Below are positions 29,154 through 64,000 of a stretch of DNA of 64,000 nucleotides, piece after piece. Each line of letters starts with the position of its first letter. Position 1 is the first letter of the stretch. Position numbers and translations under genes: made by a program. Source of the DNA: Gammaproteobacteria bacterium (GTDB taxonomy: Bacteria > Pseudomonadota > Gammaproteobacteria > G965277405); NCBI GenBank assembly GCA_965277405.1, contig OZ255726.1, positions 1,504,001 through 1,568,000 of the forward strand. The letters run 5' to 3'. The notes beneath the pieces are model-generated. The model had not been told where the DNA came from. It did no database searches and saw only the letters and a program-made list of their open reading frames with translations.

Positions 29154-29245
29154 ACATGTGATTTTGAACACTGATTATGAAAAAGATGTGGGGTTACTAA
29201 ACTGAGCGTACCATAGTAATGAAATAGTATCAAAATGAAGCATTG

Positions 29246-29858: not shown

Positions 29859-32800
29859 ATGCTATTGCGCCTTATGCGACAAAATTATGTCATTTATGGC
29901 ATTATCATGTTGTTATTCGGCTTAGTGGCAGGCTGTCAGGATAATGCGCCGAGTGAAGATGAACTTTTGGCTGCTGGTCTGTTAACTGGAGATGCATATA
30001 GTCCACAGCCAACGGTATTTAAAGTAATCAAAGAATGTGTTGGTAACATAACAGATCCAGTAGACCCGCAACAGGAATGTGCCTCATTGGGTAATGACGT
30101 TCCGATTGCTAGGGAATCCTTTAATACAGGCACGCTAAATGGCAAGGAAAACCCGCTGTTGCTGTATCTTGAGTTTGACCATCCAGTGTATTTTAATGAG
30201 GCGCGCCAAGCTAAAATACAACTAACCAACGCCCAATGGACAAACGCTGGTGCGGCCACTAAATTGATTAAACCAGTCAAGATCAATGAGAAGGGTGAGT
30301 TTAGTAGTGTTATCGATAATATTGATATGCCGCAAGCATATCAACACTTTATATTGGGCTTGCTGCATGGTGAGTCTGATGGCGATAGCGTCACTGTAGT
30401 TGTTCCTGCTGATTTTGTCTACCGCAAGACGGATTCTGGCTACATTGCGTATAATTCCGTTACAATAAAGCTGTCGTTTATTGAGGATAGATCGCCGCCA
30501 ACGGCAACGTTTGAGTTTACAGACGGGATGGAATATCTAAATAATGATAAGTATATTGGTGTCGACTACGAGCAATATGGGGAAATAGAATTTGATGTTG
30601 TTTTGTCGGAAAACGTGTGGATAGGTGCTGAGGTTAGCTCAGACGCAGCAGATTTTGATGAAAATAGTTTTAGCAGCTTTTTTAGAAATAAACCTCGGAA
30701 AAGGACAGGATCCTATATTAAAAAAAACTCTGACTTGTATCGAGCAAGTACTATAAATAATGCAAGAGAATTGGAGGATGGTGTAAGAAAACTAACGTTC
30801 AAGCTCAAAAACACTAATGATGCTGAGGGTGGTTCTGATGGTTATATAGCGATTGCTGATGGCAGTTTGCCAACGCATGGTGGTGATTACGGCTTTCAAT
30901 TGAAAAAAAACACCTTGTGTGACGAGGCGGGTAATTGTGTTGATTCTTTAGCAAAACAGTTAATTGTTGACTCAAAACCGCCAAAAATTAAGGCAGTTAC
31001 GGCGAGCTTGGGTGCTGGTGCTACCGCTAAACTTAACGCGGGTTCAGTGTTAATGGTGGGGGTGTGGTTCGATGAGGAAGTGGTGAAGCCGACTGGGATG
31101 CGGCTTAAGTTTGCGATTGGCAACGGGGCTGAAGGGCTTGGTGACAAACCAAGATATTTGACTGTTACTGGTGCTGCTTGTGACGACGGTGATGAGGAAT
31201 GTAAGCAGAGTGACGCTGATAATGATTTTTGGCAGTATAGCTATACTGTTAGCTCAGGTGACGGCACCAATAAGGCTGGGTATATTTATGATAACAGTGA
31301 TGTAGCTGCCTGTGATGCTGTTGATGATGACAGTGGTGTAGAGACCTGCAATGCTGCCGACGACAACAGTGCTGTCGCTGCACAATGGTCAAGTGATATC
31401 AACAACATGCTGCAGCTGGTACCAGGTGAGCAGGAATCGTTTGCTGGGGAGCAGCCCCAGTTTGCAGAAGTTGTTGATGCGTATGGAAATGTGATGCAGG
31501 TTGCTGAGGATATTGTTATTACGCATGGCTATATACCAACAGATAACAACCTGTATTTCACCAAGAGGCCAACCGTTGATGTTGATATAGCGGTTTTTAA
31601 TAGTAAAAAAATTGATGCTATTGCACCAAGATTAGATTTTCCAATAAATGGCGACGCTATTAAACTTAATTATGTCTCGACGGTCATGTCTGGTAGTCAG
31701 TCGACAGCTGCGGGTGATAACAGGGTTATAGGAGTGTATGCCCAAGCAGAAAAAAACACATTACGTAGTGGTGAATTTATCAGTATAGCTGTGCCATTTA
31801 CAGAAAAGCTGTCGATTAAGAGGGATGCGAGTGGTCAACCAATCCTCGCTAATTGGAGTGATCCATCAGCGTGGGGGATAACAGACTTAGTTATTAGCGG
31901 GCGCTCAGGCGTGGGTGAGCCGCTGCAAGAGTATGTGCTAGATTATACTGCAGACCTTACTGCTCAAGTGATTAGTGGTAGCAGAGGCGATGAGGATATT
32001 GATGTTACTGGTGAAATCTTGTTTGTGGAATACCCAGGCATTGAACAAGACGTTACTGCTGATAGAAAATATCTTGTATATAGCAAGGAGATCTCAGAGA
32101 CGGTTTTTGGGGAAGGTTTGATGAGGACTAGTTTCGTCGTCAAGCATATCCGCAATTTTGCTCAGGTAACTGATATGCATGGCAATACAATCGTTGGAGT
32201 TGATGGCAAGGAGCTTGCTGCAGATAACCTGTTGCAGATAGATGTGCCAAGAAGCGAGCTCAAATTGGTTACCTCACCGTTTAAAATCGATACGGTGGCA
32301 CTGTATCGATACGATGAGCAAGAAGATACAGATAATCATAATCATAAATATCTCAGAAAAGTGACTGATGCATCAGCCTCAAAAATTGAATATATGGGAT
32401 TGACAGCAACCTCGCCATATACATATTTTGTTGGGATTCATTTTACTGATGAAGTAGCGCAATCCACTGATGTGGGCTCTTGGCAGCCGTATCAAGAGTT
32501 TGCAAGATTGTCGCCGCTACGCTTGAGGGTCGGAGTGAATGGTGATGATAATGGCAAGGTATTTACCATTGTCCCTAGCAGAGATGGAGGGGGGAGCGCT
32601 AATAGGTACACTATAAAAAAAGGTATAAATGATGATGAACTTGTGCGTAATCCAGCAGACGGTAACGTCAATAACTGGGTGTTTTATCGCATTGATATTA
32701 CTAATGATTTGCGAGGCTACCAAGATGATGATGGACTTGAAATACTAACAGCAACAATCGGTGTTGATGGGGCGGGTGATAATCAGATTTTTACTGCTGA

Positions 32801-35800
32801 TAACATTCCGTTAGTCGGGGCGTTTGATACAGGCTCAAACGAACATTATGTGCTGAGGTTTGCAGTTATTGATACTATTGCGCCTGTTTGTAATACGATA
32901 TATTTGACCGATGACGGTGGCGGCGGTCAAAAGATTGCAAAAGATGGTGAGAGCAATTCGATTCCTCGTAATAAGCGGCTATACGGGACATCGCTGCAAA
33001 ACAGTGCGCACAGAGAAATATATTTGATTTTTAGCTGCGATAAGCAGCTTAAATCAATAACTAATGATGCTGCAACTGATTTATTCGGTATACCGCTCAA
33101 GTATGGTCCAAATCAGAGATTGGTTTCTTATTTTCAGTATAAGAAATTGATTACTGATAACGATGATAACTCAATGATCGTGTATCAGCATAAGTTTCAG
33201 CAAAACAGTGTCGCCGCGCAAATAGGGGATGTATCAGGCGATTTTTCTCTAGGTAAAGATCAAGATCAAAACCCGCTAAGGTATAAGTATGATGTTGAGA
33301 CTAACTCAATTCAGGTGACAACAGACTCTATATTTAAAGACGCTGCCTTTAATGATGCCGCAGTTGCCAGCGCTGTGTTTAATGATCTAAGTTTTACCGC
33401 GTATAATCCCACTACAGATGCCGCAACGGAACAATACGTGCAGTTTGGCGCAGTGGATAGAGAGTTTAATACATTTGTTATCGATTCAAGAGCGCATCCG
33501 GTGCGGCTGGATTGGTCCACAGATAGTGGCGTATATAATACCACTGACCGTAATAAAATATATTTAAAGGTGTATTTTGGGTCTGAGGATAAAATAGCAG
33601 AGAATGTTACCTATCGACATATTCATAAAATAACTGACTTTGATACCAGCAGCCAAGTAACAATAAAATTAGATCTTACCAATACAGACGCAGATAATGA
33701 ATTTGTATTTGATAGTTTTATAAATAAACATGGTGATAGCATCGATGATGCGCATGAATCTGCAGCTGTCGGGATACGCTTTGTCTACAATATAACAGCA
33801 GATGCTTCTCGTGGTTTAAAGAAAATTGACTCACTGGGTGCAAGTGTATTAAACACTATGCCTAGAGGCTTATATGCAACAGGTGAATTTATAAAATTTG
33901 ATGGTAGTACGGTTGATGTTTCATCAGAACTTGATTATAAAATAAATGATAAATATATAAATGAAGTGAGTGAAGATGTTGATAAAGTTAGTATTGATAG
34001 CTTTGTCCCCAAAGTTATATTGCCAGATTTAACGTCTGATAGAAATCAACAACTACCGATAGAGGTGTATTCGCGGCGATATAAGACGGAAGGAAGGTCA
34101 AACATTAAATTGCAATATAGACATAACGACAACGCTAAGATAAATCCAGATATAACGTTTAGTGAATTAGTGTTTAAATTAAATTTTAATCAACAGGTCA
34201 ATAAATTTAATACAGATGATGAAAGTAATGAATTAGATGCGTATTTGGGAAAAAATATAAAGTTATATTTTCATATAACTACTGACGAAGACAATGCTAT
34301 GCAGCAAACAGCGCGGTATTTGCCTATATTAGAGTATAAAGAAATGTTTGATAAAAGCGGTGATAATAATCGATTGGCGTATAGTAATCAATCGTTGTAT
34401 TTTATTTATAACTTTAATACACGTGGTCAGATCGGAGTTGGCATTGATTTTAACGGTATTGAGATAAAAAATGAATCTGGTGGTATTTTTTACGATATTA
34501 AAGATATAAATCGCAATAAATGGGATTATTCTAGTTTACAAAGTAACATTGATTTTGCTTATAAAGTAAATATGGTAAGAGGTGTTATTGTTGAAAGTAT
34601 TGACATAACCCCAGATATAACTAATGATGTTGTAAGGTATGATACACCGACTGATATTGTAGTTAAACTTAATAAAAGACTGTTTATTGGTGAAGATGTT
34701 ACCGCTGAGATTGCTATCAAGCTGGTGATGAATATTGCTGAAGATTTAAGTTTAGATTTAAGGCAAGATACCTATGCTATACTTGTGCGTTCAAGTTTAA
34801 ATGCAGGTTCAGAACCAACTAATGACATTAGTAATAATGCTGACGCCGATGGTTCAAGCGAATTATTGTTTCGCTTCCGCTTAGATCAAGAAGTTGACGA
34901 TGATAGGCTGGATGATGCTGATGGTGGTATTACCATTGCCCCTGACTTATATATATGTAGTAACAATAATGAACAAGTGCGCCATAGCGCAGAAAATTGT
35001 ACTGCTTATGTGTCATCTAACGATGAATCGGCAGATGAGTCGTTGAAGCGTAACGACTTGTATTTTAAAACCTATAAAGACCTTGATAATGATCCTAATA
35101 CAGCCAAAACTAAACAACTAGAGAACTTTGACACCTTAGATGCTAAACTAGACGATTTTAACTACACATATGGGGCTAACTCAAGGCTGCATAGGGTGGT
35201 AGCAGTCAATAGCGATAATCTAGATGATTCGATACGACTATATTATAAGGATGCTGCTACTGATAAATTAACGCTAGCTGATACTAACAGCGCGCATGTA
35301 TTTAGAAAAAATGCACAAGTATATTTAGGCGCAAAATTTAACTTAAGTAGAAGCGTTAACCCAGATTTAACGGCGAATAAATTTGACGCAGCCAGTTTAA
35401 ACAATAGCAACATACAATTCAAAGTGGTATTGTACGATCCTGCTGATGAAGATGCGATTACAGAAAAACCACTACTGTTTGATTTTTATAAAGTAAGTAA
35501 AGTTGCTGATTTTGCTGTTGCAGATAACCCTGGTGATAACGCACAGTGGCTACTTTTTAATGCCACGCTTGATGGTGGTTATTTTGCTACGCCAGTTACT
35601 GGTGATAAATCGATTAAAGTTGATTTTACTGATAATATTCAATATTCTAACGCTAGTGAACTATACGCATTTAGTACGATTTATCATAAAAGTATCAATG
35701 CGGGCTTGCTTAAAGTGAATACTGTAAGTCAGGAAGAGAGTATAACGGTTGTAACAGCAAGAAGTCAGCCGCTACTAGGCTATAGCATTGATTCGCGTCC

Positions 35801-38800
35801 ATATGTGCTAAGTGTTGAGAACATTAGCGACTATACGAATGACGTAATAAGCAAAAGAGACACCTTAAAGTTTAAATTAGTTTTCAGTGAGCCGATAATG
35901 TGGGTTGGTGATGCTACGAGTGACACTACAGTCCATGCTAAGTTAACAATAACAAAACGAAATGATTCAAGTTATTCTGCAGTTAAAGATATAACTTTTG
36001 CTGTCACAGCATTAGCTAGTGATGCTACTGCTAATAATGCAATACAAATCGAATTCAATCATTGGTCCCAATCCCAATTGCTAATAGATACCCAAGCCGA
36101 CGACTACGAAACAAATTTAGAATTTAGCAATATTGTATATTCGACAGATGCTAGATTAAAGTCTGCAGATACTAGTGCGATAGTTGCGCCTAATTTAACC
36201 GATATAAGATATAACGAAAAATTGAGAATTTATACAAAAAAAATTGAGTTAGATAAAGAAAATATTAAATATGGCGTTGTTCCAGTTGCTGGGAACACCT
36301 GTGTAGAAAAGAGAGTAATATATTATAACAATCGCTTTTGTATTGAGATATCGTTTAAGGGCGGAGCTGGCAATGAAAGATTTCAATATAATTATGGCAA
36401 TAATGTTGAGAGTGCAGGGATTAGGATAACAGCGAAAAAACCAAACAGTAGTCAGCTCGCGGTTGATGATTTTTTATTTGGCATGTCGATAGATGCTAGT
36501 TTAGTCACAAACATACCGTCCGATACAATTGTGTTTACGGTAGCTACCGCTCAATTCAATGTAGGGCTGAGCAATATTAACCCCTATAATGGAGAGTCAA
36601 TACCGCCTGCAAGTTTTACCTTAATAGATTCTAGTATAAAGATAGATGGCTATGGCACTCTTACTAGCTATTTAGGCGATTTAGATAACGGCGATACGAC
36701 AGCTGATTTTCCTGCAACATTACAAATTGATAGCAGACCGCAGGTAGACAATAATGATATTAGCATTTTACCAACAACCAAATGGCTACCTGCAACTAAT
36801 ATTACAATCACATTACCATTACATCAATCTTCTAGCGATGGTTACAGTTTATATCAATCAGGAGATGCCGAGTATGCAAATTATTATTTAGAAGCGTATT
36901 TGTTGAATACATCTGAACAAATAGAGCATAGTTCAAATACTATAAAGCTACCACTAAAAGAAATCAGTGGAGACTCGTTAGTGTTTAGTGGTGTGCCACC
37001 GCAAGGTATAGCTAATGGTAGATATTATTTAAAAATTGAAGAGCATATACGCAGAGAAGATGAAGATGGCAGCAATATTATTAATGATGATAATTATATT
37101 ATAAATTACAAGTCTTTTGAAAGCTATATATCGCCTGCTATCGAAATAGATACAAGTAAAAGGGAGTTTAATGAGGTTGAATTATCGTATGCAAACGCAA
37201 TTGACGACGTCTGGGGTAACAGCGTTATACATGAAATCAAGCCTTCAAATAACCGTTTGATTTTAAGAAATGGTAGTTATTTGGTTTTTGATTTTAGAAC
37301 AAATATTGGTAGTTTTTCTGCAAATGATAGTATACAAATAGCAGATCAAGAAATTTACACTGGTTTATCTATAACAGCATTGATTAACGGAGTTGAGCGG
37401 AATGTTGACAGTAAGGTATTATTAAATGATAATGCAACTACAACGCTGAATACAAGCAATAACTCAACGGACGCAACAGTACTGCGTTTTTATTATCAAC
37501 TTACAGCTGCAGATTATTCAACTGATGCATCTGGTAATCCAATTACAACTATTGAATTACAACAGAATAGCTTTATAACTGATCATTCTCATGATGCATT
37601 TACATATGACGATGAAAATCATATTGTTTTTTCTAGTGTGTTAGCTTATAGCTATACATACAACCATGTTAATAATTCTGGTGAATTAACTAATAAGACA
37701 GTTATTGATACCCGCCCGTATATTAAGGCTATTTGTTTTTCTAATAATACCGATATTTGCTTTGCTAATAATACCGATGATAGACAAAGTGCACAGCACT
37801 TAATTGCTAAAGACAATTCGCACGACTTGTCCTTGCTTGTTGCATTTAGCGGCAATATTGGCTATAGCGACGTCACGGGCGATGTTACGGTTGATTTTGC
37901 ATTTATTGATGGAGACAACAACAGCAGCCCACTGCGATATGCAGACAATGAAATAATAACAGGCACTTATAAACTGTCTTTTCTTAATTCGGATATATCC
38001 AACAATCGGCTCAGGCTTGATGTTATACAGCTTCCTGCTGGTATCGATACTAGAACAAATATCAACGTTTTAAAACTGTCTAATTTTGTGTTTAGTGCTG
38101 CTGCGGCGACAAGCATAGTTTCAAATGAAACAGGACAAAACAACACAACTTTAGATTTCAGTGATCAGGTTGCAGCTATGAAAACTGGAACAGTACATTC
38201 GGTGTATACTAAAGAGCTGCAGCTTGCGGCTGCAAATCCATATGTTTGGAAGTATTCCAATTGTAACGATAATGGGTCTCTTGCAGCTATAGATGAAAAT
38301 GTAAATATGTATGATAAATGTTTAGTGCTTGGCATAACATTTGCATTAAACGCTAATACTAGTATAACTGGTATAAACGATGATGATGATTCATTAAATG
38401 CCACAATAAGCGTTAGTGGCGATGGTGTTCAAGGTACTCCCATAACTTTAGCATACCATAGCTTAACTGCAGTAGGTTCATTTGTGAATGATCGTATCTA
38501 TTTACAGTCAGAGCAATTGAAAAATGCTCATGCTAATTACAGCTATAACTCCAATAATTATTTAAAACTTAGCATTAGTGAACCTGAAAATTTCATCCAA
38601 ACAGTGTTTTATAATATAGACAATAATAACGACACAACCACAACAAAAAACTTACCATTGATATTTGATTTAACAATTGCTGAGTTGCCAGATGTGACCA
38701 TAGATACAAGAATGCTGTTAACTGATATTACCGTAGATGATGGGCTAATATATACAGCCACTGATACAATTGCGGTACATTATGTATTTAGCCAAATATT

Positions 38801-55300: not shown

Positions 55301-58300
55301 AGTCATGGTATGGGCAGGTGAACTGTTGCTCCACGCCACCTTTAATAACGCAGCTAATAACGCAGCTAATAACGCAGCTAATAACGCAGCTAGCACTGAT
55401 GGCACGCGGCGTATTCCATATTTGTATTCAACACATGCTGGCACACAACATGTATTTGGCTATAGAACCAAAACCGCAGATATAGGTACCAGCAGTATTG
55501 ATATTAACCGCGTTCAATCGTATGTAATGGGGAGGTATAGCGGCACAGGCGATATTTTTGTAACGCAGTCAACGGCACAGTCGCCAATTCAAACAACTGG
55601 TGCCAACGCAGCTGTTGCCTTTGCTAAAACTATAAACAAGAACTTTGTGATTCAGATAGTTGCCACAGCTGGCGATAGTAATAGCAGCGCCTACAAACTC
55701 ATCAGTGCCATAAAATTTGATGGCTCTAGTGTTACAACATGTGGTGGCACAGCACCTATTTGCGCCATCACTGATACCGCCAACAACGGCAAATATCAAA
55801 CGGTTACAGTTAATGACAATGACAATGACAATGGCAGTGACAATGTTGATGCCACGGTTAGCACGAGTAATGGAGCTTATGTGTTTGCAGGTAGCGCATT
55901 AAAGGCAGAAAACACTATAAATGTAGCAGCAAAGCCCAAACTAACCATTGTTGCCGTGCTCAGCAATGTTACATTTGCCAACACAGAGCATCCTCCAACC
56001 CACACCGTATTCAAAAACCCGCTGCTATCATTTATAGGTATTGGCGAACTGGGAACAGAATACACTATTGCGCTTGATGTCCAAAAAGACCGCTCGCATG
56101 GTCTGGGGCTATACTGCGGTGGCGGCTGTTATATATCTTACAGATTATCAACATTGCAACAAGATTCGTTGGCAGGGGATGACAAAAACATCTTGGTTAT
56201 CGAACACTATAGCGGCGCAGCTGATCAAACTCGTTTTCAAGCACAAGATATTAGTATCAGTCTCAATGGAGATAGCCTAACCATTGTCCAAGATAGCCAA
56301 CACGCCAACTCTAATATTGCCATCAGTAATTTCGCAACATATATCGGCGGGCGAGCAATATTTAGTAGTAGTCCGCTGACGGCAGTCAAGCCAGCGATTG
56401 ATGACACACTCAACACGATTGCGTTAGGTAGCTTTCATTTATATGACTTCAGCGTATTTACTGCAGCAATGGGTAGTTTATTGCCGTGTTATATCGATGT
56501 ATTGGGGCGCAAATACGCAAGCGTGGCAAAATGGCAATCCACGCTTGTCGATCAATCAGTTTGCAATGTCAGGCAAAGTATTGCGGCAGGTGTTGCTGCA
56601 GCAAACCTCGTGCTATGGCTGGATCCGGACCCCACATACTTGGATTTTAGCAGCGACGGCAGGGTAGATACCTGGCTGGATAGATCAGGAAGAAACCACC
56701 ATGCCAGCGTTGACATTGTTCGTACCCGCAACATGCGCTCTATTGCCGCTAAGTTCTCAAATGGACAATCCCTGCTAATTACAGACGCATCAAGCGCAAC
56801 TGGCAGCGCTAACAGGGAATATTTCGAAAATGCGTTGACCAATGACCAACGCAGCACAATAAATTTTGCAACAGCAAACCGTGCTGCTGGTGAGACAATT
56901 TATACAGCTGCAAATTACTTTCAGCAAGACGTGCACCGCTATTATCATGGCGTGTTTAGCGAGGATGACTTTAGCGAAGATAGCCAACAACTCACCGCAT
57001 TTGCGGTATTTATCACCCCAACCAGCAACAGCAAGCCGCAGCCGCGCAGCTTGTTTTTACTCGATAACGAACCTGATGACAGCGCATATAGAGCATTAAC
57101 TCCTAATAGTTTTGAAGTATTTCGCTTTGGTTCAAACTACCCACAACAAATTCTTGGAACCTTTGATGCCAACACCATCATTGGCTATCCACATGGTTTA
57201 TATGCAGGTAAAACCGTGCCAGTACCGCTGATGCGTACTTTGGCTACTAAATATTATGCAACTGAGAATAGCGACCCATTCAGCACCTATTCAACGGAAA
57301 AACCACGGCTGATTGCCAAAGAATATAGCTGGCAGCAGTATGCAACTTCGCAAATAACAACGCTTGCCGTGCGGGTAAATCTTGCCAACAGCCCCGCCAA
57401 TAGCTATCAATATTCGATAAATGGCTCAGACTTTATTACAGATTTTGATAGCGCTGCGCGTGCTACATCGTTCAATGGCTACGCGCTGGGTTTATTGCAA
57501 GATGCCCAAGGTGCCGTGTTTGATAACTCATACGACACCGGCATCGCCTGGGGCGATGTGCTGGTCTACGACACAGCATTATCAAATACCCAGCTGCGCC
57601 AGGTCTTCCAATATTTGCAATTAAAATATGCAAGCCATTTTACCCAATCGGTTTTTGCCAGCAATTTACCCAATATTTTAACCAGTGAAGGACTGCTTAT
57701 TTATGCTACAGCAAACACAGAATTTCTTAACAAGTACAAAAACAACACCGCAATCGGGCGCGATGATCAACAAGGATTTTATAAAGTTTGGGGACAGGCT
57801 AATGAAAACTGGAGTCTCGACCAAGATCATTTTCGTGGCTATACCGAAGGTTTTTCCGCAGGTGGCGTCCCTGGTAAATTATGGGTGAACTCGCTGACCG
57901 GCTCAGACAGCCGCAGCAATCAATATGGCGACTACCGCAAGCCAGACTCATTGTTTGTCACCATTGCCGATACCAGCCAACTCGATAATCGTGAGTTTTT
58001 AACGTGGAGCTATAAAGACAGCTCGTATAACTTCCCAACTTCAAAATATATCGGAGTGGAAGGCAACTATGACGTTGAGCGCATCCAGCGGATATATAAA
58101 TTCGCTGAAATTGGCGAAGTTGGTCTCATTAGTCTCAAATATATCAACGGGATTAACTCGCGTGGTTTTTCCAAAAATGTACGGATTATTATCGCCGCAA
58201 ATGAAGCGTTTACGCAAAACGTCCGTAAGCAGGATTTACGCGCCATCCAAACGTCAACAAGTAATTCTCGTCATGTATACGGAACAGCAGCACCAATACA

Positions 58301-61300
58301 AATCAATAATGGAGAATTTGTTGCGGTTGAATTTTTAACGCCGAGCAAGCAGCTCAACTATGCCGAGAATATTTGGTTTTCATTTTCACCAGATAAAGTT
58401 GAATATAATCAACAGCTAGAGTTGTTAGATGCAACAGTAAGATCGTTCCAAAACATTCCAAACCTCAGCGTTATCGCTTGCCCATCCTGCGTACTTTCGT
58501 CACGGCCTGCTGGCAACAAACAAGGACTACATGCCCCAACAGCAGCTGCAAATGGCTTTACGTATACAGATGCTAACTTGGGAGAATCAGCAACACAGGT
58601 TGCTGAAAAAAACCTATTGATTGCGTTTGGCATCGGCAGCAATGGCTGTACTCCACAGGCGGTAACCCACCTATACCAAGAAACAAACCCAGCCGCATCA
58701 ACAGTCGATATAGCCGTTATCTGCGCCGCTAGCCAAGCAAGCAACCCACAACTATCAATCACCCTCACAGCCGCAGGATTTGGTTTTAGCGATTTTAGCC
58801 AAGGGGTTGGCGGTGATAATCAAAATTTGAGTCAAAATTCCAGCGCAAATACCCATACATTTACCGTCGATATTTCCGCAGATTCAGACCACTTACTTGG
58901 GTTAGTGTTAGAGCCGAATTCCCGATATCTGCTTACTATTGATGACCAAATATTGGTAGACAGCACCAGCACATGGGGGACTGGGGTATTTAAACCTTGG
59001 AGTCCAGCGACAAATCAAACACATGGATTAAACCATGCCCCAGCTCAAACCAACCAGCAAGCACTAGCTATTTGGCTATATGAACTGCGCGTTATTTACG
59101 CCAGCCCATACACCAATGCCACCAGCGAGTTTGCCCGCCATTTGAACGCGATGGCTATTGAGCATGGTTTTCCAGTGCCCAAGTCTATTGCCTTTGCATA
59201 CGAGAATTTTTCTTGGAATAGAGCGCATGACTTGTTTGCCAACAACCCAGTTTTCCTTGCTAATACAGGTAAATACCAAGGAAAATCTACCACGATAGCC
59301 AGCGATGCAGATATCAGTTTTAGTGTTGATGAAAGTCTGTTTCAAGGCAAGCAGCAGCAGTTTTTGATATACGCAGATAATGGTAATTCTTTTACACAAG
59401 CGGCTAATATAGCGGATAATTTTACCCCGCAAGCAATCGCCAACATTAGCGCTGTCAGCAACAAAGGCTGGCGGTTTTTTAGCAACGTCTCATTGGGCAC
59501 TACCACCGTTACCATGCCAAGCCCATCAGACAGTCATAGCAATTCATATGTATTGGTGCTCGATGCCAATAACAATGGGGTAGATGCTGCCGATAGGCGT
59601 ATCCCGCTATCATCAACGCATGCAACAGCAACGAATACTCCACATAAACTGTTTGGACAGCTCCCCATTAGCGCGGGCAGGAGCAGCGTCTATGTTGCGA
59701 TAATCAACCCAGCAATATATACATCAGCCCAAGCTCTGCTGGTTACGCCAGGGTCATATACCACAGGTAGCAAGATTGAAGCTACACTGACATTAGCCAA
59801 ACCTGTAGACATTAGCTATGATGCTACAGTCACAAACGCTAGCCCTGCGACGCTTGACTTTATTTTCTCAAATGCAGGCGGCGACAATCCACAGCCGCAA
59901 CAAGCGACGTTGAACTATCCTCTCGCAGCTAGCACAGAGTTGGTATTTAGCTATACCGTACTAGCGGGTGATAGCAATGCCAACGGTGCAGTGCTGTTGC
60001 CAGCTAACCCCGCGATCAACTGGGGAACAGGTTTAGTTATTACCAAGCCGAGCACTACTGCTGGAGTAACAGTGCTACCATCTTTGGCTGGGATAACATT
60101 TACTGGCACACGGGTGTATGTTAATACAAGCCCACCACAACCTGTGGCGGTGCATGTTGAAAACAACCAAATATGGTACGGACTCGATGCAAAAATTGCT
60201 ATTGGCGTACTATTTGACAAATATGTAACAATAGCTACTACAGCTGCTACAGCTAACAACCCAGCAATAGCCTTGACTATCGACAAAAAAGACGGCACAA
60301 CTACAACTGTTCAAGCAATAGCCACTAGAGCAGATGATAAAAAAATAATTTTTGAGTATGTTGTCGAGACAGGGCTATTTGATAGCGACGGCATAACCTT
60401 GCAACAACAACAAACAGAAGAAGTAACGATCAGCAACTTTGCCAACATCACCACGTATGGCCTAGCAGCGACAACTGGCAATATCACAGCACTGGCAAGT
60501 GGTATCGGCAGACAAATAAAAGTTGATAGCCAAGCGCCAATATTGACATCCGCAAGGTTTGATGTAGCAGATTACACCCTCACTATTGGCGACACCTTAG
60601 CTGTTGCTCTTGAATTTTCAGAGGAGGTTGCCCTGACCAACGCTGGTATTAAACTAAGACTACCAAATATAGACGGCAGTCGCGCCCTATCCTTAACCGC
60701 TATCAGCGCCCGCGATACATTAGCAAGCACGCATAGATTTATGCTTGCCGTTACCGATAGTAATTTTATTTTTCCATCACCGCCACAGCTGCAAGTTGTC
60801 AACGCCACTGCAATCCACGATATTGCTGGCAATCAACTCGCTGCACATACAGCCAAAACCATTGCAGGAACAGCAGTTGGCTTTGAAAACACCACCAAAG
60901 CAACCATTATCCAAGCACAGGTGCTAGCCCCACCATTTGCAGATGGCCACTATGTGCTGGCACTCACGTATAACCGCGCAGTGCATGTCCAACCAAATGC
61001 AGTATTATCAGTAGCGCTCAATATTGGTGTGAATAATGCAGGCGCAACACCAGCAACACGCTCCATGGCGGCACTTGTTAATCACCACACGCTCGAATTT
61101 AACCTCGGCAGCAACGTCACCGCGTTATCAGCTAACGACACCCAGTTGAGCATTATTAGCAGCAACCCTTGCCAAGCTACCGCCGCCACCACAACCGCTG
61201 CAGCTGTCGCCACAACCACCGCCTGTATTGTCGATAGCGCCAAGCAAGCCGCGGACTATTCGTTTGCAGCCTTTGCCAGCAATATTGCTTTGGACAAAAT

Positions 61301-64000
61301 CATCCCAACAACCAACGCACTGCCAATACAAGGCTTGCAAGGCTGGTATTATCCAAGTGATGACCAAGGATTTGTCGCCACAGCAGGCTGTGAATCTGCT
61401 AGCAATGCGCTGAGTTGCCTGCGTGATATCCATGGTGCCAATCATGTTGAATTTTTAGACCCTGCTGTGTCGCCAAACATAACAAACACCCACAAACCAA
61501 CATTTGTATCGCCAGGGCTGGTATTTCATAACTCGGTTGGCATAGCCAAAAATGAGTTTGATGCAACCAATGGCATTACCATCGCCGCGGTGTTTGTACC
61601 CAGCCAAGACGCAACAGCGGATAGTTGCCTGCTCGCAGTAGGCGATGCTAATAACAGCATGCGCCTGTGTTATCAATATACGTCCAGCACAGACTCAATT
61701 CACACCTATACCATTACCGCAACTAACGGTAATAATACCGCCACAATTGCTGCCACCACAGCTGCCGCAATAGCTGACGCAGCAATATTCACAGTCGTCA
61801 GCGCAACAGCTACAACGCTGACGCTGGCAACAAGCGCCAACGTGACAGATGATGATACCTCAGCCGCGGCTGCGTTGCCTGTAGCAGCCCAGCTAGTGCT
61901 TGGTCATGCCAGTGCAGCTGGAGGCGCCGCAATACAGCAACCATTTATCGGCAGCTTGCAAGAATTAGTCGTCTACAACAGCGGTAAAAATAGCTGCGAA
62001 ATTGCCAATATAGCCAGCGCGATGCGTAGCAAACCAACTAGCTTGCCGTGTGTCACTAATTTAGCAGGGCTTACTGATGCCGAAATCTCAGCTAATGATA
62101 CAACGCCAAGTATTGCCTTTTGGCTGCGACCAGAAGATCTCAACTTCAACGCCGATCGCTCGTATACCTGGCGCGCCAACACCCACACTGATAGCCCGAC
62201 TGCAATTACCTCTAAGCCAAAGCTAACAAGTTTACGCCAGTTATCAAAAGATCCAGTTTTTGGTGGACTGCGCGTTGGTAACGATGATCCAAGTGGTGAT
62301 TATCAATGGCAACATGAAGCAGAGGAACACCGTAACCCTGCCTTAACAATCCCAGGCCCCCTGATGGGCGTCGGCTTAACCGTAGCGAATAACATTATTT
62401 ATATAGTTGCTAAATTTAAGGCAAAAGGCTGTTTGCTAATATTGGGCTATGTAGATGAAATATCCGACCATCAAGAAAGAGAAAATAATGTTATTCCTTG
62501 TGGGATGTCTAGTCACAGAATGAAAACACCATTTGCAGTTGCACAAACTGTTATAGCAGCCAAGAACTTGCTTTTAAATACCGACGTAGTCACCGCAAGA
62601 ATGGGAAATATTCGCAATGCACAATGGTTCCCTGCGCAAATAATTACTATTGATGGTCGATATCGCCAAGGCCAAACAGGTGGTTTATCAATAAATGGCT
62701 ATACCAATAATCAAACATTTAGACACCAAGGAAATGCAGGTTATGGGACTATAATACATGACTATAGCGCATTCACCCGTGGCGGCGGCACCCTCAACGA
62801 GATTATCGTCATCAACAACGCTGCAGACAATCTAGCTACCCAGCAGCTCGCAACCAAAATAGCTACCTACTTGTCAGTCAAATACGGGGTTGTTGCCGAT
62901 AATCGCTATGGAGATATAGCAGATCAAAGTGTCGATCTAAGCACCATCCGCTCCAGTACGGGAATGCTGTTGTCAAATACCAACGAGCGATATACATATT
63001 TTTCACAGCAAAATATGCCAAGAACGATGGCAAGCAACGACCGTTATTCATTTGCAGTGCTAGGCAGCGACGCTGGCTTGGGAATCAACAACCTCAAGGC
63101 AGTATTGACAGATTCTCCCAATGTCCATTTTGAGGCGCATTTACTCGCAGCAACAAATAACTTGATTGCATTTAACGGCAGAATACTCAACCAAGGTGGG
63201 GAAAGGTTGGCAGATTATGAGGTGGATTGGACGTATCTTAAATCGTTTGTTGATGATATTACCCCAATTAAATATTCAATAGCCCAACAGTATGAATTCC
63301 CACTCCATGTTTACCAAACCACCACCGCTGCTGCCACAACAGTCCATTTTGATGCATATGTTGCCAGGCAGAAATATCTACTTGGCTTTGATTATGCGCT
63401 ATATGTGTATGATGGCGATGGCGATGGCGATGGTGATATTTCGTTAGCGGGTACCTTCTACCCAATGACAAAACATGAATACATTAGTGATAGCAACAAT
63501 GATCTGTATCAAAAACAACGCCTGAGCGCTACCGTTACCTTAAGCGATAAGCAGTTTTTTACAGTCGCGCGCATCCGCACTGGCAGCAACAGGCCAGCAA
63601 TCTGGCTCAAAGCCGCAGACGTGGATATTGTCAACAGAAAATGGAAAAATGCTGGCGCGCTACCGCTAACCTTAGCGTTTGACCCAGCCGCGCACATAGA
63701 AATTTTGCAACAAAGCAATGGTATGGCTGCCCTCAATATTCAACAATATCGAGGACGGCAAGGAATAACACCGCTGCGCGTGGCAGATAATTTTGCTGGG
63801 CATGATATGCCGCATCTGTATGCAGTTATTAAAAACGACGTAAATGCCGTGCCTGCGGCACAGCGTAATAAATATTTTTGGCAAGGTTCGAGTAACGTTA
63901 ATCTCTTCGCTATCATCCCCCAAGGGCAGAACTTTAGCGCAGCAGCCAGCAGCCAAGACGTCGCCTGGTATTATGATAAAAGCTGGAGTGAGGATGTTGC
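43359..64000 (+). CDS. Giant predicted lipoprotein B (over 6880 aa, runs off the window end): Ig-like repeats, FN3, several LamG-like modules
   Basis: Starts MRIKQMASSLAYTKQYIWRSTAIALLFMLSA-C (lipobox Cys at 43452); spot translations at 43.4, 54, 56.6, 57.5, 61-63.5 and 63.96 kb are open; the track lists no ORF in this frame, consistent with no stop codon. Confidence 0.88.
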   Translation, partial: MRIKQMASSLAYTKQYIWRSTAIALLFMLSACTDGAGTVTEENLRQAGLLTKAVITPVITDIVLEKICTAADYTACNNSNNLIDPFAVNQTTIQGDAFVYIFKVVFDSNNEPFLNKATLRTVELDNAEFADATIPVSSLADVNKQADDEDPNNATATELYAQPAFEDRYTYAILKPIAFTGSATTGSGLTITIPAGWVFTVSGKGEPIFNSASFSKTFTIDLLQPKISAISFDPPTVGELVNNGYIGITDAFNKINIYITFNKNMYKKIIKDKDDKYHKNIDTNDDLLEWGDVSHSSIKKYEFQYKSGLTGSNVLIFTLSITPSAASALQHDTKFSLHLASDALVDAVGNVLGGIDQNDDLNIYYQDDTSNTIFTVDALKPQLQIPALAAPQVHNDDVYDGRTEVLGIGDSVSVVLTFTEKVTFNNHNNLRFKVLVSENNYSSINPKYFVLTSPVKQGIQPLESSDKFTLTYTVKEGDGDNNINSEDGRHFANSSGWNSDLADRIDLPEQNLVVYDQAGNSVANLLINSLELPVNGEIDQVIIDGKRPQLGVDGITSRLSRFMSGVLGVESVYIQQNDKLVVGVYSSEKLKTKIDGSNYDFRSGSILTSATAIVDFYNTAGESLNNPITLEYDAELSKINIPHSSTTTIDGSSDVHKDLREKIHKEIFGGDATSFGVADFKYPINRLVFYSALMPDREEAAQLQLTSMQFNNTDVTNLVDFAGNTLQDLDPGGSSVQLNQPIDMGSLQGDFSIEGFNAYQMNDAGTMTAVTTNSKHRYKDYELIADTMFVALHLSRDIGSASTNIDSMSMIATIDTSNDISNTPASNTINVISEAAELGTEYDSSYTNMIFFPFKLPKQADQRLLDTDGISVKIQWGDGIRVAKIKDELGNWLAESGIYYNGSHLMQDMLVDNIDPVCEYKLSGKQLSYATPILFSLAENHNALYFHLVCNEEIGYKYAADIAKIPFIETAFGFATNNTDDTPDFVVRTDFQQLSPNNNLVFSLPVKPGYQAYGHKLRIRNKSVQRYYDVTANEVKKERIFTDAAGNPITTYFATAPNDRYITPSEFTTYEQTDSPAIVTNVDIVFDTRAYPKTVTFYRASAGYPKDHPADTSGKILVSTRYKQFGVEITFSDKTGTDRNIDVAGLNQDAQFDYSLPMQMTDSNLAVTLASKVVNIAANSKTVKFVFDLDDFPGTIYENLKFDTASIHALIDNNAIPKIKTINNFTNISGTKYSITQPVSLLFQDTDISNDFFNKVQVNNVVPEFEDNVKIYYIEKQDPSSDTDPLYQELDIRADNGDLNYGTFYIALRTDAALTVRPKIWDVESEEFVEHDVQNVMLNFYAADLPVTANYVLPTEFHEKTGSTSSDAQMMYFAFDFNAVAQAGRDFKFYQASATTTTDRATYISGNDTAYLVDRFHNSIDVTSLSNAFSLDKTYTVNLVATKNIVNVEFVDDDFVTYQFDNGRPFYSNGDTIKLRVDFNTLITYAEFDNEVYAIDIEVADQDNSSDKKKLFLEKTLSGISTDASGNLHSYLIFSKRITDSMEFNADSRSSAFKLITVSDNIYLCARNEIDNTEVANSEPHLDCANSMLVKAASVDGSGAPLSSRFSQQQVDTIERLRINSKLNYVRDDGNDKPVVAAYTREKDSSNTLVADSENKVVALDASKPLRHGDKLLFEFIVDLDQIYDFTSASLPTNRLVVKENNENLAKLNIQIARSSNGYDLLPVTIALNENSSEYNDSAVLFEYTVKKGDLSNIQITKPSNQHISVDTLTINTADLFVAKTAIVDEIHQNHIDSKFENPVDVTFDFIIDTRPYITAIKVVNNFNNTIYTKNDQLKVQLTFDQLVMPSAAVSTTTSMLKVNLSSDSLAATCRAEFALAYNNHSGNTIDFQGALPADCHQYDTAAQLVVAEFYNNITADLSTSAYWYSAEISVAATSDRLLVDQRLDVSVADGGIKLYTKPLTFVSAQIGKVATTNHSCSAAPSLPPIKIKINDTLCVQLSTQNNTATNNDTPPLYLVTENNSPQLILQGFGVDGMPQEIAFTQPQVINGANATDTSTDIVFTHTITSNSAWLTNPANTKYTYIYNGAVKLFNADNADNAGELTAPADHHYVRHVNSIQVLGSDINTPSFNLVASADAIQRALTAFNTNFYVDTRSIYYTIDTSTIQPVSAPYLLQDKITFTMNMSGDEQIGERSIGDFRLLADLSSDRADTATLEIEFALIDTPTATLKFVSVALPPDNNGSYTLRNFRPKPNTSDLISNSTRATINYDKFNDIAANIKLNTGTIALDSIALQLTNNSDDVNIASYLANVTSYIDLANQPQLLTTADIGKYLLFTVSSSEANTKETPLKKPELELGLRFVLDRSNDIISHRTAEFVDLIQQENDDYTADAIFKYQIQDGDYSNTTVNDTLLFGKIQFNTANAELLFAGITDDNYFSADGGSAVALDTTNLNTSIEAFADNLQINTANDFASLTIIAEDGGVTRASTVYVQEESIYLTLDSQPALLYFDPATATQQHAYLDVSVDGVNAQGSTTSSTLRFQLQSFATTGEQRIKFKANVAALLAQYNGITPDNPLTFKFSTATITMPASATGTTVQIYRQVNGKKTYLHNKLCHAAANNCSIQNKSLSFNLNKLKITAIAIKGAHAPTVVADTPAAEIAAIEENYNTSASVVVNNQPARNGDDLRTGDYLIFEVTTNADDISADLANDQQLKYVTFTIEDYQQQPKILSSILPTALAQYATYRRPIIQANTTIGFRFYYKIQRGVFANIAFQEKDYPNISIGYSAADNSTFMPHGVAGALVARSFHPNGNNLTEKVLKLTSERNQFNVSNDALVVDTRIRVTAVAIDAAYNRATQLIGTHPDSDKTITVTLDHRVTAGTGFAATAVRLHADFANFTPNIVGGTDYSTDFWIQEDNRTRFTSGVNSSDTIQFTLTGRHGRAGPHTRVLDYAQDTVNAEGNAEGYTLTFNSLAINTIDLYWEEEDELRTFVDWSIDIDGNNSNSNIIQGIKITANAAELQTIEVSTDASNQPLQVGDNIVLLAKIATESGFDLTIDATTDLSLKFKIQSFTKENQGELVSKTAAFASWITDDTVDDTLDDTPAKNIGAKFVYTVAAGDLYNLRFPMLQQNTAVQALYTIGADLSFDVARLFNKPIDSGNGNPINTTATTLANPASISINTAPTATGMQLNSAFNSAVEYVDNANANTLYVTLTYPDDSIDVAKTRAYSNSALHVTVNGHDRTFDSIPSNTFKVGANDVAEFTANTLSYQYVFDISADNNDFSTDTLLTVQPVRMVFDNNGVIENSDKYAGMTEVLTQQGQGFMPLFNDFTAMPAADIFSEDYDFRAGVFEFSTDVLLDYSENSENDSDNIHSTATENSENGSDDLIYLGERDVLHIYISTTTANNNLRSFTQVSEDNQDNQDNQEPTAEINTIMLRMASGTLIARQATQSVCFANGMQTAATATCNFMRFDVTLPNYADSSTDAANCISIGSATCGVSNVASLLIQDQGNTEYTTSLVVEQLTPSAASAANADFTTRHAIRNHIKTGNEYGVSLADRIVVEPTPARVSPTFDVDTVAEFKVSWQDVAHASKYILTYNVSGDSDATTDIIAFNSDSENNDITFAGIAGKMYIISITAVNAAGKYLPPLPNYRTLTQYASLPTIADVSIDVLTKAGETKTVAADNKYQLVAGEKIQFTFQLNIDISGDPSTRQEFNTNIGGKRFAIQFYFGDKLRSLSNLAIAEATDHKKLYFQYTVQQDDVAEYVTLANPVAISLLDSGFPLQNIKGTNIINYTIPLDDADTAQLGRLNVANTSPTVIAIQTSENVAYSTEANANGLIDIWVYFNKAISYASPNNNAAPSITFTADIEGEDNTAQDLQARYQSISGNTALFRIDLAAADNDKNWSSNELRLTANEIANHNSLQNADKTQSINPDIALFKKDFIVTLQHVQQDAESASDVVITQTSSRAGIFGVGELLTFTVATKTPVMVWAGELLLHATFNNAANNAANNAANNAASTDGTRRIPYLYSTHAGTQHVFGYRTKTADIGTSSIDINRVQSYVMGRYSGTGDIFVTQSTAQSPIQTTGANAAVAFAKTINKNFVIQIVATAGDSNSSAYKLISAIKFDGSSVTTCGGTAPICAITDTANNGKYQTVTVNDNDNDNGSDNVDATVSTSNGAYVFAGSALKAENTINVAAKPKLTIVAVLSNVTFANTEHPPTHTVFKNPLLSFIGIGELGTEYTIALDVQKDRSHGLGLYCGGGCYISYRLSTLQQDSLAGDDKNILVIEHYSGAADQTRFQAQDISISLNGDSLTIVQDSQHANSNIAISNFATYIGGRAIFSSSPLTAVKPAIDDTLNTIALGSFHLYDFSVFTAAMGSLLPCYIDVLGRKYASVAKWQSTLVDQSVCNVRQSIAAGVAAANLVLWLDPDPTYLDFSSDGRVDTWLDRSGRNHHASVDIVRTRNMRSIAAKFSNGQSLLITDASSATGSANREYFENALTNDQRSTINFATANRAAGETIYTAANYFQQDVHRYYHGVFSEDDFSEDSQQLTAFAVFITPTSNSKPQPRSLFLLDNEPDDSAYRALTPNSFEVFRFGSNYPQQILGTFDANTIIGYPHGLYAGKTVPVPLMRTLATKYYATENSDPFSTYSTEKPRLIAKEYSWQQYATSQITTLAVRVNLANSPANSYQYSINGSDFITDFDSAARATSFNGYALGLLQDAQGAVFDNSYDTGIAWGDVLVYDTALSNTQLRQVFQYLQLKYASHFTQSVFASNLPNILTSEGLLIYATANTEFLNKYKNNTAIGRDDQQGFYKVWGQANENWSLDQDHFRGYTEGFSAGGVPGKLWVNSLTGSDSRSNQYGDYRKPDSLFVTIADTSQLDNREFLTWSYKDSSYNFPTSKYIGVEGNYDVERIQRIYKFAEIGEVGLISLKYINGINSRGFSKNVRIIIAANEAFTQNVRKQDLRAIQTSTSNSRHVYGTAAPIQINNGEFVAVEFLTPSKQLNYAENIWFSFSPDKVEYNQQLELLDATVRSFQNIPNLSVIACPSCVLSSRPAGNKQGLHAPTAAANGFTYTDANLGESATQVAEKNLLIAFGIGSNGCTPQAVTHLYQETNPAASTVDIAVICAASQASNPQLSITLTAAGFGFSDFSQGVGGDNQNLSQNSSANTHTFTVDISADSDHLLGLVLEPNSRYLLTIDDQILVDSTSTWGTGVFKPWSPATNQTHGLNHAPAQTNQQALAIWLYELRVIYASPYTNATSEFARHLNAMAIEHGFPVPKSIAFAYENFSWNRAHDLFANNPVFLANTGKYQGKSTTIASDADISFSVDESLFQGKQQQFLIYADNGNSFTQAANIADNFTPQAIANISAVSNKGWRFFSNVSLGTTTVTMPSPSDSHSNSYVLVLDANNNGVDAADRRIPLSSTHATATNTPHKLFGQLPISAGRSSVYVAIINPAIYTSAQALLVTPGSYTTGSKIEATLTLAKPVDISYDATVTNASPATLDFIFSNAGGDNPQPQQATLNYPLAASTELVFSYTVLAGDSNANGAVLLPANPAINWGTGLVITKPSTTAGVTVLPSLAGITFTGTRVYVNTSPPQPVAVHVENNQIWYGLDAKIAIGVLFDKYVTIATTAATANNPAIALTIDKKDGTTTTVQAIATRADDKKIIFEYVVETGLFDSDGITLQQQQTEEVTISNFANITTYGLAATTGNITALASGIGRQIKVDSQAPILTSARFDVADYTLTIGDTLAVALEFSEEVALTNAGIKLRLPNIDGSRALSLTAISARDTLASTHRFMLAVTDSNFIFPSPPQLQVVNATAIHDIAGNQLAAHTAKTIAGTAVGFENTTKATIIQAQVLAPPFADGHYVLALTYNRAVHVQPNAVLSVALNIGVNNAGATPATRSMAALVNHHTLEFNLGSNVTALSANDTQLSIISSNPCQATAATTTAAAVATTTACIVDSAKQAADYSFAAFASNIALDKIIPTTNALPIQGLQGWYYPSDDQGFVATAGCESASNALSCLRDIHGANHVEFLDPAVSPNITNTHKPTFVSPGLVFHNSVGIAKNEFDATNGITIAAVFVPSQDATADSCLLAVGDANNSMRLCYQYTSSTDSIHTYTITATNGNNTATIAATTAAAIADAAIFTVVSATATTLTLATSANVTDDDTSAAAALPVAAQLVLGHASAAGGAAIQQPFIGSLQELVVYNSGKNSCEIANIASAMRSKPTSLPCVTNLAGLTDAEISANDTTPSIAFWLRPEDLNFNADRSYTWRANTHTDSPTAITSKPKLTSLRQLSKDPVFGGLRVGNDDPSGDYQWQHEAEEHRNPALTIPGPLMGVGLTVANNIIYIVAKFKAKGCLLILGYVDEISDHQERENNVIPCGMSSHRMKTPFAVAQTVIAAKNLLLNTDVVTARMGNIRNAQWFPAQIITIDGRYRQGQTGGLSINGYTNNQTFRHQGNAGYGTIIHDYSAFTRGGGTLNEIIVINNAADNLATQQLATKIATYLSVKYGVVADNRYGDIADQSVDLSTIRSSTGMLLSNTNERYTYFSQQNMPRTMASNDRYSFAVLGSDAGLGINNLKAVLTDSPNVHFEAHLLAATNNLIAFNGRILNQGGERLADYEVDWTYLKSFVDDITPIKYSIAQQYEFPLHVYQTTTAAATTVHFDAYVARQKYLLGFDYALYVYDGDGDGDGDISLAGTFYPMTKHEYISDSNNDLYQKQRLSATVTLSDKQFFTVARIRTGSNRPAIWLKAADVDIVNRKWKNAGALPLTLAFDPAAHIEILQQSNGMAALNIQQYRGRQGITPLRVADNFAGHDMPHLYAVIKNDVNAVPAAQRNKYFWQGSSNVNLFAIIPQGQNFSAAASSQDVAWYYDKSWSEDV
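55344..55391 (+). repeat. AATAACGCAGCT x4 in frame (NNAA x4)
   Basis: Read directly. Confidence 0.95.

Follow-up and report, generated by a model that had tools for sequence, protein, structure and literature searches.

What do two adjacent genes that together take up 40.6 kb, or 1.9%, of a small gammaproteobacterial genome encode, and where might their products act? The question was raised by a 64,000-nucleotide stretch of DNA, hereafter the window (positions 1,504,001 to 1,568,000 of contig OZ255726.1, assembly GCA_965277405.1), from a genome that consists of a single contig of 2,174,577 bp with 44.8% G+C and whose nearest relatives in the GTDB sample shared only its class. The two genes, here called A and B, encoded giant proteins with lipoprotein signal peptides and a common proximal region. 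With moderate confidence, we interpret these proteins as tandem lipid-anchored, surface-displayed megadalton fibres that share a stalk and differ in their distal parts.

Two tandem, paralogous giant genes

Two co-oriented open reading frames (ORFs) were situated on the plus strand of the window at 29625-43346 and 43359-63998, the second being open at its 3' end. Counted from its first ATG, the upstream ORF was 4573 aa long. The likely start of gene A was the ATG at 29859, which has a Shine-Dalgarno-like AGGAAA read 5 nt upstream (29848..29853, plus strand) and gives a 4495-aa precursor (29859..43346, plus strand); the 78 codons before it, Cys/Lys-rich and lacking signal features, are likely non-coding. 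Gene B started at 43359, 12 nt after gene A. Only the first 6880 of its 9036 codons were held by the window (43359..64000, plus strand), which it overran by 6.5 kb to end at window-equivalent position 70469. After removal of the signal peptide, A would have 4470 residues (~493 kDa, isoelectric point [pI] 4.56) and B 9005 residues (~979 kDa, pI 4.84).

Smith-Waterman alignment of residues 1-2300 of A with residues 1-2100 of B scored 380, compared to 66.2 +/- 7.5 for 60 shuffled sequences (z ~42), and z was 26 for the same alignment when shuffling preserved local composition. The full alignment joined residues 16-3341 of A (29904..39881, plus strand) to residues 23-3274 of B (43425..53180, plus strand), with 742 of 2895 columns identical (25.6%). 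Six successive colinear blocks within it exceeded shuffled sequences (z 13.7, 4.7, 7.6, 11.0, 5.2 and 3.2), and six off-register block pairs gave z from -0.3 to 1.4. Among the cysteines, that of the lipobox was aligned between the proteins, as were three pairs and one half of a fourth pair; all of these lay up to A2161/B1995, with none aligned beyond. On the basis of the block scores and the aligned cysteines, colinearity was firm to ~2100 residues and probable to ~3300. Plain blastp of A against B returned three weak high-scoring segment pairs (HSPs; best E 9e-9), and the first 600 aa of A did not retrieve B from their own genome at E <= 0.001. Past the shared region similarity was lost: the last ~1150 residues of A (3342-4495) and the last ~5760 of B (3275-9036) aligned with a score of 76, against 69.5 +/- 7.9 for shuffled sequences (z 0.8).

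These results agree with much of a preliminary description of the window, made from its letters alone, which had proposed a tandem paralogous pair with a shared proximal stalk and differing distal parts. Both proposals were upheld by the alignments, and all 10 motif pairs that it had listed between the two proteins were present in the same order. Its size for B, over 6880 aa, was correct as far as it went and too low for the full gene. We regard A and B as anciently duplicated, putative giant lipoproteins that would be co-transcribed.

Lipoprotein signals and predicted location

A signal peptide closed by a lipobox stood at the start of both proteins. Type II signal peptides were called by rule, requiring a positive n-region, a hydrophobic h-region and [LVI][ASTVI][GAS]C within ~35 residues. 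In A the lipobox was LVAG-C (Cys26), followed by Q-D-N-A-P (signal peptide 29859..29936, plus strand), and in B it was LSA-C (Cys32), followed by T-D-G-A-G (43359..43454, plus strand). The N-terminus of A, MLLRLMRQNYVIYGIIMLLFGLVAG-CQD, possessed two Arg and a 16-residue h-region, and that of B, MRIKQMASSLAYTKQYIWRSTAIALLFMLSA-CTD, possessed Arg/Lys and a 12-residue h-region. The lipobox signals noted earlier on both proteins therefore stand by sequence rule, and the genome encoded LspA, the signal peptidase II (131.7 bits, cut-off 73.95). Shortly after the lipobox, SEDELLAAGLLT in A (residues 32-43; 29952..29987, plus strand) and TEENLRQAGLLT in B (residues 40-51; 43476..43511, plus strand) had in common the motif E-x-x-L-x-x-AGLLT, and none of the remaining ORFs in the genome carried it at that position. 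Acidic residues were situated near the cysteine in both (C-QDNAPSEDE in A, C-TDGAGTVTEEN in B), as in most other giant lipobox ORFs of this genome; D/E occurred at +2 to +6 in 6 of 7 lipobox ORFs with a length of 1000 aa or more compared to 10 of 28 shorter ones, a weak bias.

With such N-termini, the precursors would be exported by Sec, lipidated at Cys26 (A) or Cys32 (B) and cleaved by signal peptidase II. Asp at +2 is the retention rule for the inner membrane in E. coli, and since the +2 residue was not Asp in either A or B, transfer to the outer membrane by Lol would be expected. A LolB-like ORF in the genome scored 22.3 bits, below the cut-off of 59.6. Neither transmembrane segments beyond the signal peptide nor a visible C-terminal sorting signal were found in A or B.

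A beta-sandwich domain measures 4-5 nm and the periplasm 20-30 nm, so that chains of this length would probably be of the order of 100-300 nm and far exceed the periplasm, which points to display outside the cell. Alternatively, A and B might be kept within the envelope, anchored in a membrane and facing the periplasm, where they would have a structural or tethering role. A lipobox says little about location and is uninformative on surface exposure (PMC7857515), and the paired cysteines described below would suit the periplasm equally. Such a location seems improbable to us: 4470 and 9005 mature residues, arranged in what would be largely extended modules, would be accommodated within 20-30 nm only if folded back many times, and Asp was lacking at +2. 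Under the surface-fibre reading, A and B would instead be displayed beyond the cell surface as acidic fibres of great length, with many domains, a mostly beta structure and local disulfides that staple them.

Putative Ig-like modules, paired cysteines and distal regions

Most of both proteins lay outside recognised families. On 19 overlapping pieces covering A and B, scanned to E <= 1, no Pfam domain was assigned in B, and neither Big_2 nor any other Pfam Ig family was found in either protein. NCBIfam and PHROGs gave no match on the same pieces at E <= 0.01, and the best match of A and B in a PDB sequence search had E 0.14. When 1.84 billion representative proteins were searched by HMMER with a profile built on the N-terminal ~1000 residues of both A and B, only A itself and P0004 were returned (the latter with E 1.1e-8 and 16 stretches matched). 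P0004 is 3219 aa long, consists of repeats of ~130 residues and was itself recognised by neither Pfam nor PDB. A hidden Markov model (HMM) seeded from the P0004 repeats and iterated on A and B converged at 11 instances of a putatively Ig-like module and, when extended with copies from other genomes (99 instances in all), identified 3 modules in A and 13 in B. Those in A were located at residues 370-500 (30966..31358), 1977-2091 (35787..36131) and 3095-3218 (39141..39512; overlapping the best blastp HSP to B), all on the plus strand. In B, on the same strand, five were situated at residues 383-502, 938-1035, 1444-1573, 1674-1781 and 1808-1922 (44505..49124), three at 3653-3768, 3805-3923 and 3944-4064 (54315..55550) and three in tandem at 5452-5563, 5588-5706 and 5722-5844 (59712..60890), with two more beyond the window at 7576-7682 and 8182-8298. 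The modules made up about 8% of the length of A and 17% of that of B, most of both proteins being unassigned; those within the stalk would each be preceded by an (I/V)D(S/T)xxP linker.

In the source genome the Pfam Big_5 model itself (PF13205, cut-off 23.6) reached 17 bits, at residues 3739-3820 of A, which is the site of a fibronectin type III (fn3) domain. On one contig (C492) of another genome, G436, 6 of 8 matches of A3, the profile made from 11 copies of the A/B module, coincided with 6 of 7 Pfam Big_5 matches. Because of this coincidence, the A/B module appears to be a divergent relative of Big_5 beyond the reach of the Pfam model, a link that is remote and profile-based. The first ~2100-3300 residues of each protein would then form a shared stalk containing divergent Big_5-type modules.

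Cysteines were strongly paired. A partner within 50 residues was present for 20 of 22 non-lipobox cysteines in A and 40 of 42 in B, compared to means of 8.4 and 15.6 and maxima of 18 and 30 when cysteines were placed at random (2000 trials). Pairing of this kind is expected of disulfide-bonded extracytoplasmic domains. Repeats were scarce, with four off-diagonal pairs by windowed blastp, three of them between A and B, and no long DNA repeats in either gene beyond trivial ones. A perfect 12-nt tandem repeat of 4.2 copies was observed inside B (window 55343-55392), reading by eye as in-frame Asn-Asn-Ala-Ala (NNAA) units, and is possibly a length-variable spot that keeps the frame.

Beyond the stalk the two proteins took different forms. 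A carried the fn3 domain (residues 3733-3817; 41055..41309, plus strand), which matched PF00041 with 35.5 bits in the whole protein and 37.9 bits in the piece (cut-off 25), and then ~680 distal residues, without an assigned fold or any similarity to B (41310..43343, plus strand), that may form a head. The region specific to B ran from residue 4370 onward (56466..64000 in the window, plus strand), and the ~5700 residues of B past the stalk would comprise more Ig-like modules together with unassigned ones. Several candidate domains were considered without being adopted. An fn3 domain in B at ~3560-3645 was not detected by Pfam, and the fn3 of A had no blastp similarity to B 3530-3670. LamG-like jelly-roll modules, suggested by eye in distal B by the patterns W-x-D-x-SG and VY-x-x-LS, gave nothing in Pfam and did no better than controls in hhalign: with a 20-sequence LamG profile, five B modules had E 0.012-0.19 and two stalk controls 0.066 and 0.23. 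Laminin_G_3 (PF13385) had no match in the source genome, compared to matches in 48 of 120 other genomes of the class, G038, a genome flagged as unpublished, being among those counted. At ~7214-7252 of B, two related discoidin-like families matched a single stretch, both sub-threshold (E 0.056 and 0.17), which gives no more than a hint. IgGFc_binding (PF17517) had no match in the source genome, though its control also matched nowhere.

Homologues, and the module in other giant proteins

Full-length relatives of A and B were not found. No homologues were detected in 40 relatives of the source genome, which share only its class, and no related loci in metagenome contigs or genome contigs. Shared-word searches, which are insensitive, returned A alone when residues 1-700 of A were compared with proteins of 2472-7867 aa, and no homologue when residues 3275-6880 of B were compared with proteins of 3784-12040 aa; B 4350-5400, used as a separate query in the same insensitive and length-restricted manner, also gave none.

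The module was more widespread than the proteins. Within the class, the A3 profile had matches in 8 of 299 further genomes sampled; within the phylum, at E <= 1e-6, it matched 39 of 400 further genomes, nearly always in ORFs of 1000-8000 aa. Among 15 large module-bearing ORFs of the phylum whose N-termini were inspected, none had a lipobox and 11 began with the motif LE(P/A)RxxxD(G/A)A. Of four of the 15 on which Pfam was run, three had DUF4347, and Big_5, Big_12/13, Calx-beta and PATR domains were identified too; leucine-rich repeats (LRR) were also noted. We take the LE(P/A)R-DUF4347 architecture to be that of giant adhesins secreted by a type I secretion system (T1SS). Given the company that the module keeps in these adhesin-type giants, A and B would most likely serve to bind particles, other cells or a host, each protein at its own distance from the cell. 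Of these targets, attachment to a host, which the preliminary description had suggested, received no support from the observations made here.

A second, independent pair of similar design was encoded by G126, a genome of the same class. Its giant lipobox ORFs of 8651 and 11272 aa (G126:C1 2351549-2377504, plus strand, and 804015-837833, minus strand) had the lipoboxes LLAA-C-GDD and ILAA-C-GSE, were colinear paralogues and contained 16 and 15 copies of the A/B Ig-like module at colinear positions; no Pfam domain was found in the ~5000-5900 N-terminal residues scanned. Like A and B, the pair combined a lipobox, colinear paralogues, the Ig-like module and housekeeping neighbours. Unlike them, its genes were ~1.5 Mb apart and lacked the AGLLT motif. 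Blastp gave no HSP between this pair and A or B at E <= 1e-3, and the A/B N-terminal profile reached whole-sequence E values of 0.026 and 0.75, with no match beyond the module.

The source genome encoded eight giant lipobox ORFs including A and B, of at least three unrelated architectures and together ~4.7% of the genome. The 9576-aa ORF (genome contig 596925-625655, minus strand; 27 He_PIG stretches), the 3457-aa ORF (about 1-10372, minus strand) and the 2985-aa ORF (15513-24470, minus strand; 20 He_PIG stretches) shared a near-identical signal peptide ending in LLLLTS-C. The 2171-aa (544194-550709, plus strand) and 1327-aa ORFs (1482112-1486095, plus strand) had in common LAIAG-C, RCC1-like repeats, fn3 and a discoidin domain, and the last ORF was 1111 aa long (137509, plus strand). 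As a side observation, six lipobox ORFs of 122 to 2129 aa carried a signal peptide of the form (L/T)LAIAG-C (genome contig 789716, 1480173, 1482256, 1486490, 1491435 and 544320), followed in five of the six by an N-x-x-SSSDSETNS low-complexity tether.

Comparison with known surface proteins

The closest known design is that of LigA and LigB of Leptospira, which have an N-terminal lipobox and a shared proximal region; Lig proteins are ~1200-1900 aa long with near-regular Big_2 repeats. The number of Big domains in LigA is 13 (PMC3236721), and the Lig family is exposed on the cell surface (PMC3012076). Like Lig proteins, A and B combine a lipobox with a putative chain of bacterial Ig-like domains in paralogues that share a proximal region, the distal part being distinct in LigB. 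However, Lig proteins are spirochaetal and have Big_2 domains recognised by Pfam (PF02368), whereas A and B are gammaproteobacterial, 3 to 7 times longer and without a Pfam Ig match; they are also non-repetitive at the DNA level with few protein repeats, in contrast to the near-regular Lig repeats. On present sequence grounds, A and B appear to follow a Lig-like design without belonging to the Lig family, as the lipobox is present and Big_2 is not. They would represent this design enlarged about fivefold, in a phylum whose proteins with such modules usually leave the cell by type I secretion.

T1SS-dependent giant adhesins such as LapA, SiiE and MpIBP are also megadalton, acidic proteins with differing distal domains and with long beta-sandwich chains of the kind predicted for A and B, and the LE(P/A)R-DUF4347 proteins share the Ig-like module with A and B. 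Nevertheless, A and B differed from T1SS adhesins in having a Sec/SPII lipobox, no DUF4347 by Pfam, no RTX nonapeptides (GGxGxD; 0 in both) and no adjacent transporter genes. Marks of type V secretion (T5SS) were likewise missing, with no beta-barrel translocator or two-partner secretion (TPS) domain among the Pfam matches and no TpsB partner gene in the flanks, where neighbours were housekeeping genes and no secretion or helper gene was found. The preliminary description had set A and B apart from T1SS and T5SS adhesins and had named a full-length match to a characterised adhesin family as grounds for refutation; the distinction holds, and no such match was found with Pfam, NCBIfam, PDB or the profile and homologue searches above. 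Its phrase "undescribed system" was too strong, given that lipobox Ig-chain adhesins are known (Lig) and that further giants occur in this genome and as a pair in G126. What is unusual is the orphan sequences, the scale and the phylum; what is familiar is the lipid-anchored Ig-chain design.

Tandem paralogous giants in a small genome have a further counterpart in Giant1-5 of Apilactobacillus kunkeei, five consecutive genes for extracellular proteins of 3000-8000 aa that occupy 6% of a 1.5-Mb genome and are paralogous, elongated, lineage-restricted and diversifying by recombination (PMC12863079). Unlike A and B, they belong to a Gram-positive host and have an N-terminal beta-solenoid, and the abstract mentions no lipobox anchor (PMC12863079). 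A literature search for giant lipoproteins turned up no report of a proteobacterial one, and the word "lipoprotein" does not occur in the main text of a preprint (10.1101/2023.11.21.568195) that deals with giant genes.

Proteobacterial routes for surface lipoproteins include Slam, type II secretion (T2SS; PulA) and Bam (RcsF) (PMC7857515). TbpB, PulA and RcsF resemble A and B, as we picture them, in being lipoproteins that end on the cell surface. To our knowledge, the known proteobacterial substrates of this kind are below ~120 kDa. In Bacteroidetes, the lipoprotein export signal comes immediately behind the cysteine and consists of a polar residue and then acidic ones (PMC5080379); similar acidic residues are present in A and B, although no such signal is known in Gammaproteobacteria. 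Because T2SS can export a lipoprotein (PulA; PMC7857515), A and B might alternatively be lipidated and then released, through T2SS or on outer-membrane vesicles, to act away from the cell. The genome did encode the T2SS secretin GspD (486 bits). We consider release rather unlikely, as T2SS moves folded proteins and is not known to handle megadalton multi-domain chains, and its genes were unlinked to the locus, the secretin gene being situated ~1.24 Mb away.

Integrity and composition of the reading frames

Frames of this length invite the question of whether they are real and in use. Three sequencing runs contained the stretch, all of them DNA and from one study. A contig from a second run spanned window positions 29500-49499 with 16 substitutions and no indel. 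This speaks against the long frames having arisen through faulty assembly of a single data set, though the support is limited because all runs came from one study and the best-matching run may be the source of the assembly. All 16 substitutions fell in gene A, 11 non-synonymous and 5 synonymous, spanning 32572-42729 with clusters at 32572-35808 and 40784-41171, and none was present in the first 6.1 kb of B. The G+C content at third codon positions (GC3) was 0.29 in A and in the first 1500 codons of B, two standard deviations below that of 828 other ORFs of the genome (0.42 +/- 0.065). In the distal half of B (window 56000-64000) it was at the genome mean, the zone of low GC3 being window 30000-48000. 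This gradient may stem from a mosaic origin or from selection acting differently on codon usage, and because of it the shared stalk and the distal part of B may differ in history.

The genes could on these grounds be taken for relics under relaxed selection, with little or no expression, that are open by chance or of recent origin; the low GC3, the 11 non-synonymous against 5 synonymous substitutions and the lack of homologues in the searches made would all fit. However, stop-free frames of 13.5 and 27.1 kb cannot last by chance, no indels separated the two assemblies over 20 kb, and the cysteine pairs, linker motifs and N-terminal motif were kept in paralogues only ~25% identical. We therefore think it very unlikely that A and B are relics.

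Objections to surface-displayed, binding fibres

Several points weigh against fibres that are displayed on the surface and bind a target. No binding domain was identified in distal A or B, the LamG and discoidin hints having failed or stayed sub-threshold. The 11:5 ratio of substitutions is compatible with relaxed as well as diversifying selection. We know of no route by which a proteobacterial lipoprotein of 0.5-1 MDa would pass through Lol and across the outer membrane. Slam was considered as an exporter and rejected, its genes being distant and in other cassettes. Three Slam (PF04575) genes were present (148-153 bits), separated from gene A by 155 kb, 164 kb and 1.18 Mb, in near-identical cassettes at genome contig 1364974-1372050, 1373944-1380681 and 348299-355379. 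Each cassette encoded a ~1100-aa protein (by eye a TonB-dependent receptor), Slam and a TPR lipoprotein, and two of the three also a ~280-aa secreted, non-lipidated protein with an SPI-type signal peptide; Slam came after the ~1100-aa protein and, where present, the ~280-aa one. These cassettes presumably resemble Slam-dependent hemophore systems, and their distance and their receptor and secreted-protein partners make the Slam genes look committed to other substrates.

Since no binding domain was identified, a surface coat or spacer is a serious rival. A and B could build a dense brush or an S-layer-like canopy against phages, grazers or particles, in which two lengths would give two layers. 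The very acidic character of both proteins (pI 4.6-4.8) would suit this role, as would the number and variety of giant lipobox ORFs encoded by so small a genome. Elsewhere, however, the module occurs mostly in adhesin-type giants (DUF4347, Calx-beta, LRR), and distal parts that differ wholly between A and B suit different targets better than they would a uniform coat; we judge a coat to be possible, though clearly less probable than binding fibres.

How fibres anchored in this way might leave the cell leads to a more tentative idea. This lineage and at least one further gammaproteobacterium, G126, may have swapped type I secretion for a lipoprotein route to display megadalton fibres built of the same modules, and, jointly with such a swap, the segment after the cysteine, with its acidic residues and (in A and B) L-x-x-A-G-L-L-T, may serve as an export or tether signal, much as the lipoprotein export signal does in Bacteroidetes. 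We offer both parts together as speculation that is more doubtful than the surface-fibre interpretation itself. If it were true, it would imply an undescribed transport of 0.5-1 MDa lipoproteins via Lol and over the outer membrane.

Genomic neighbourhood

Upstream of A, the window encoded ribosomal protein and rpoA genes, proB, heme genes, an ankyrin-repeat protein, an IS5 transposase, TauE, a sulfurtransferase (rhodanese) and miaB; downstream of B were genes for a GT2 glycosyltransferase and for pseudouridine metabolism. Between miaB (minus strand) and gene A, a spacer of 687 bp contained a copy of a ~290-bp repeat, probably a miniature inverted-repeat transposable element (MITE), at 29245..29535, ~320 bp upstream of the start codon of A. 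Blastn of window 29172-29858 against the genome gave ~200 matches to this part, 85-88% identical among the best dozen matches listed, and the remainder of the spacer was covered by one match, to itself. A promoter-like site on the plus strand at 29589..29616 (TCGACA, 16 nt, GATAAT) agreed with the consensus at 10 of 12 positions; such sites were not enriched overall upstream of A (3 found, 2.7 expected), so that this is weak evidence.

At the junction of the two genes, sequence reading identified a 14-nt exact direct repeat, TATGAGAATTAAGC, on the plus strand at 43335-43348 and 43358-43371 (23 nt apart), the first copy containing the stop codon of A (TAA) and the second the start codon of B (ATG). 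Either the duplication or a minor slippage may have left this repeat behind. Separately from the A/B locus, the 550-aa ankyrin-repeat protein adjoined the IS5-family transposase (window 22045-23697 and 24231-25178, both minus strand). Ankyrin proteins are often associated with life in eukaryotic hosts; compared with Legionella Dot/Icm Ank effectors, this one scored far below the cut-off, and ankyrin repeats alone account for the similarity.

Implications

For the giant adhesins of Proteobacteria, T1SS or T5SS is the textbook route, and the surface lipoproteins known from the phylum are small. A 979-kDa lipoprotein, if indeed lipidated and displayed, would raise the questions of how Lol handles such cargo and what carries it across the outer membrane. 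A and B also illustrate how far sequences can drift, since 13,500 residues yielded one Pfam domain and yet contained a module common to large proteins bearing DUF4347. For the bacterium itself, the commitment of ~1.9% of a 2.2-Mb genome to two genes points to a central role for their products in meeting its surroundings.

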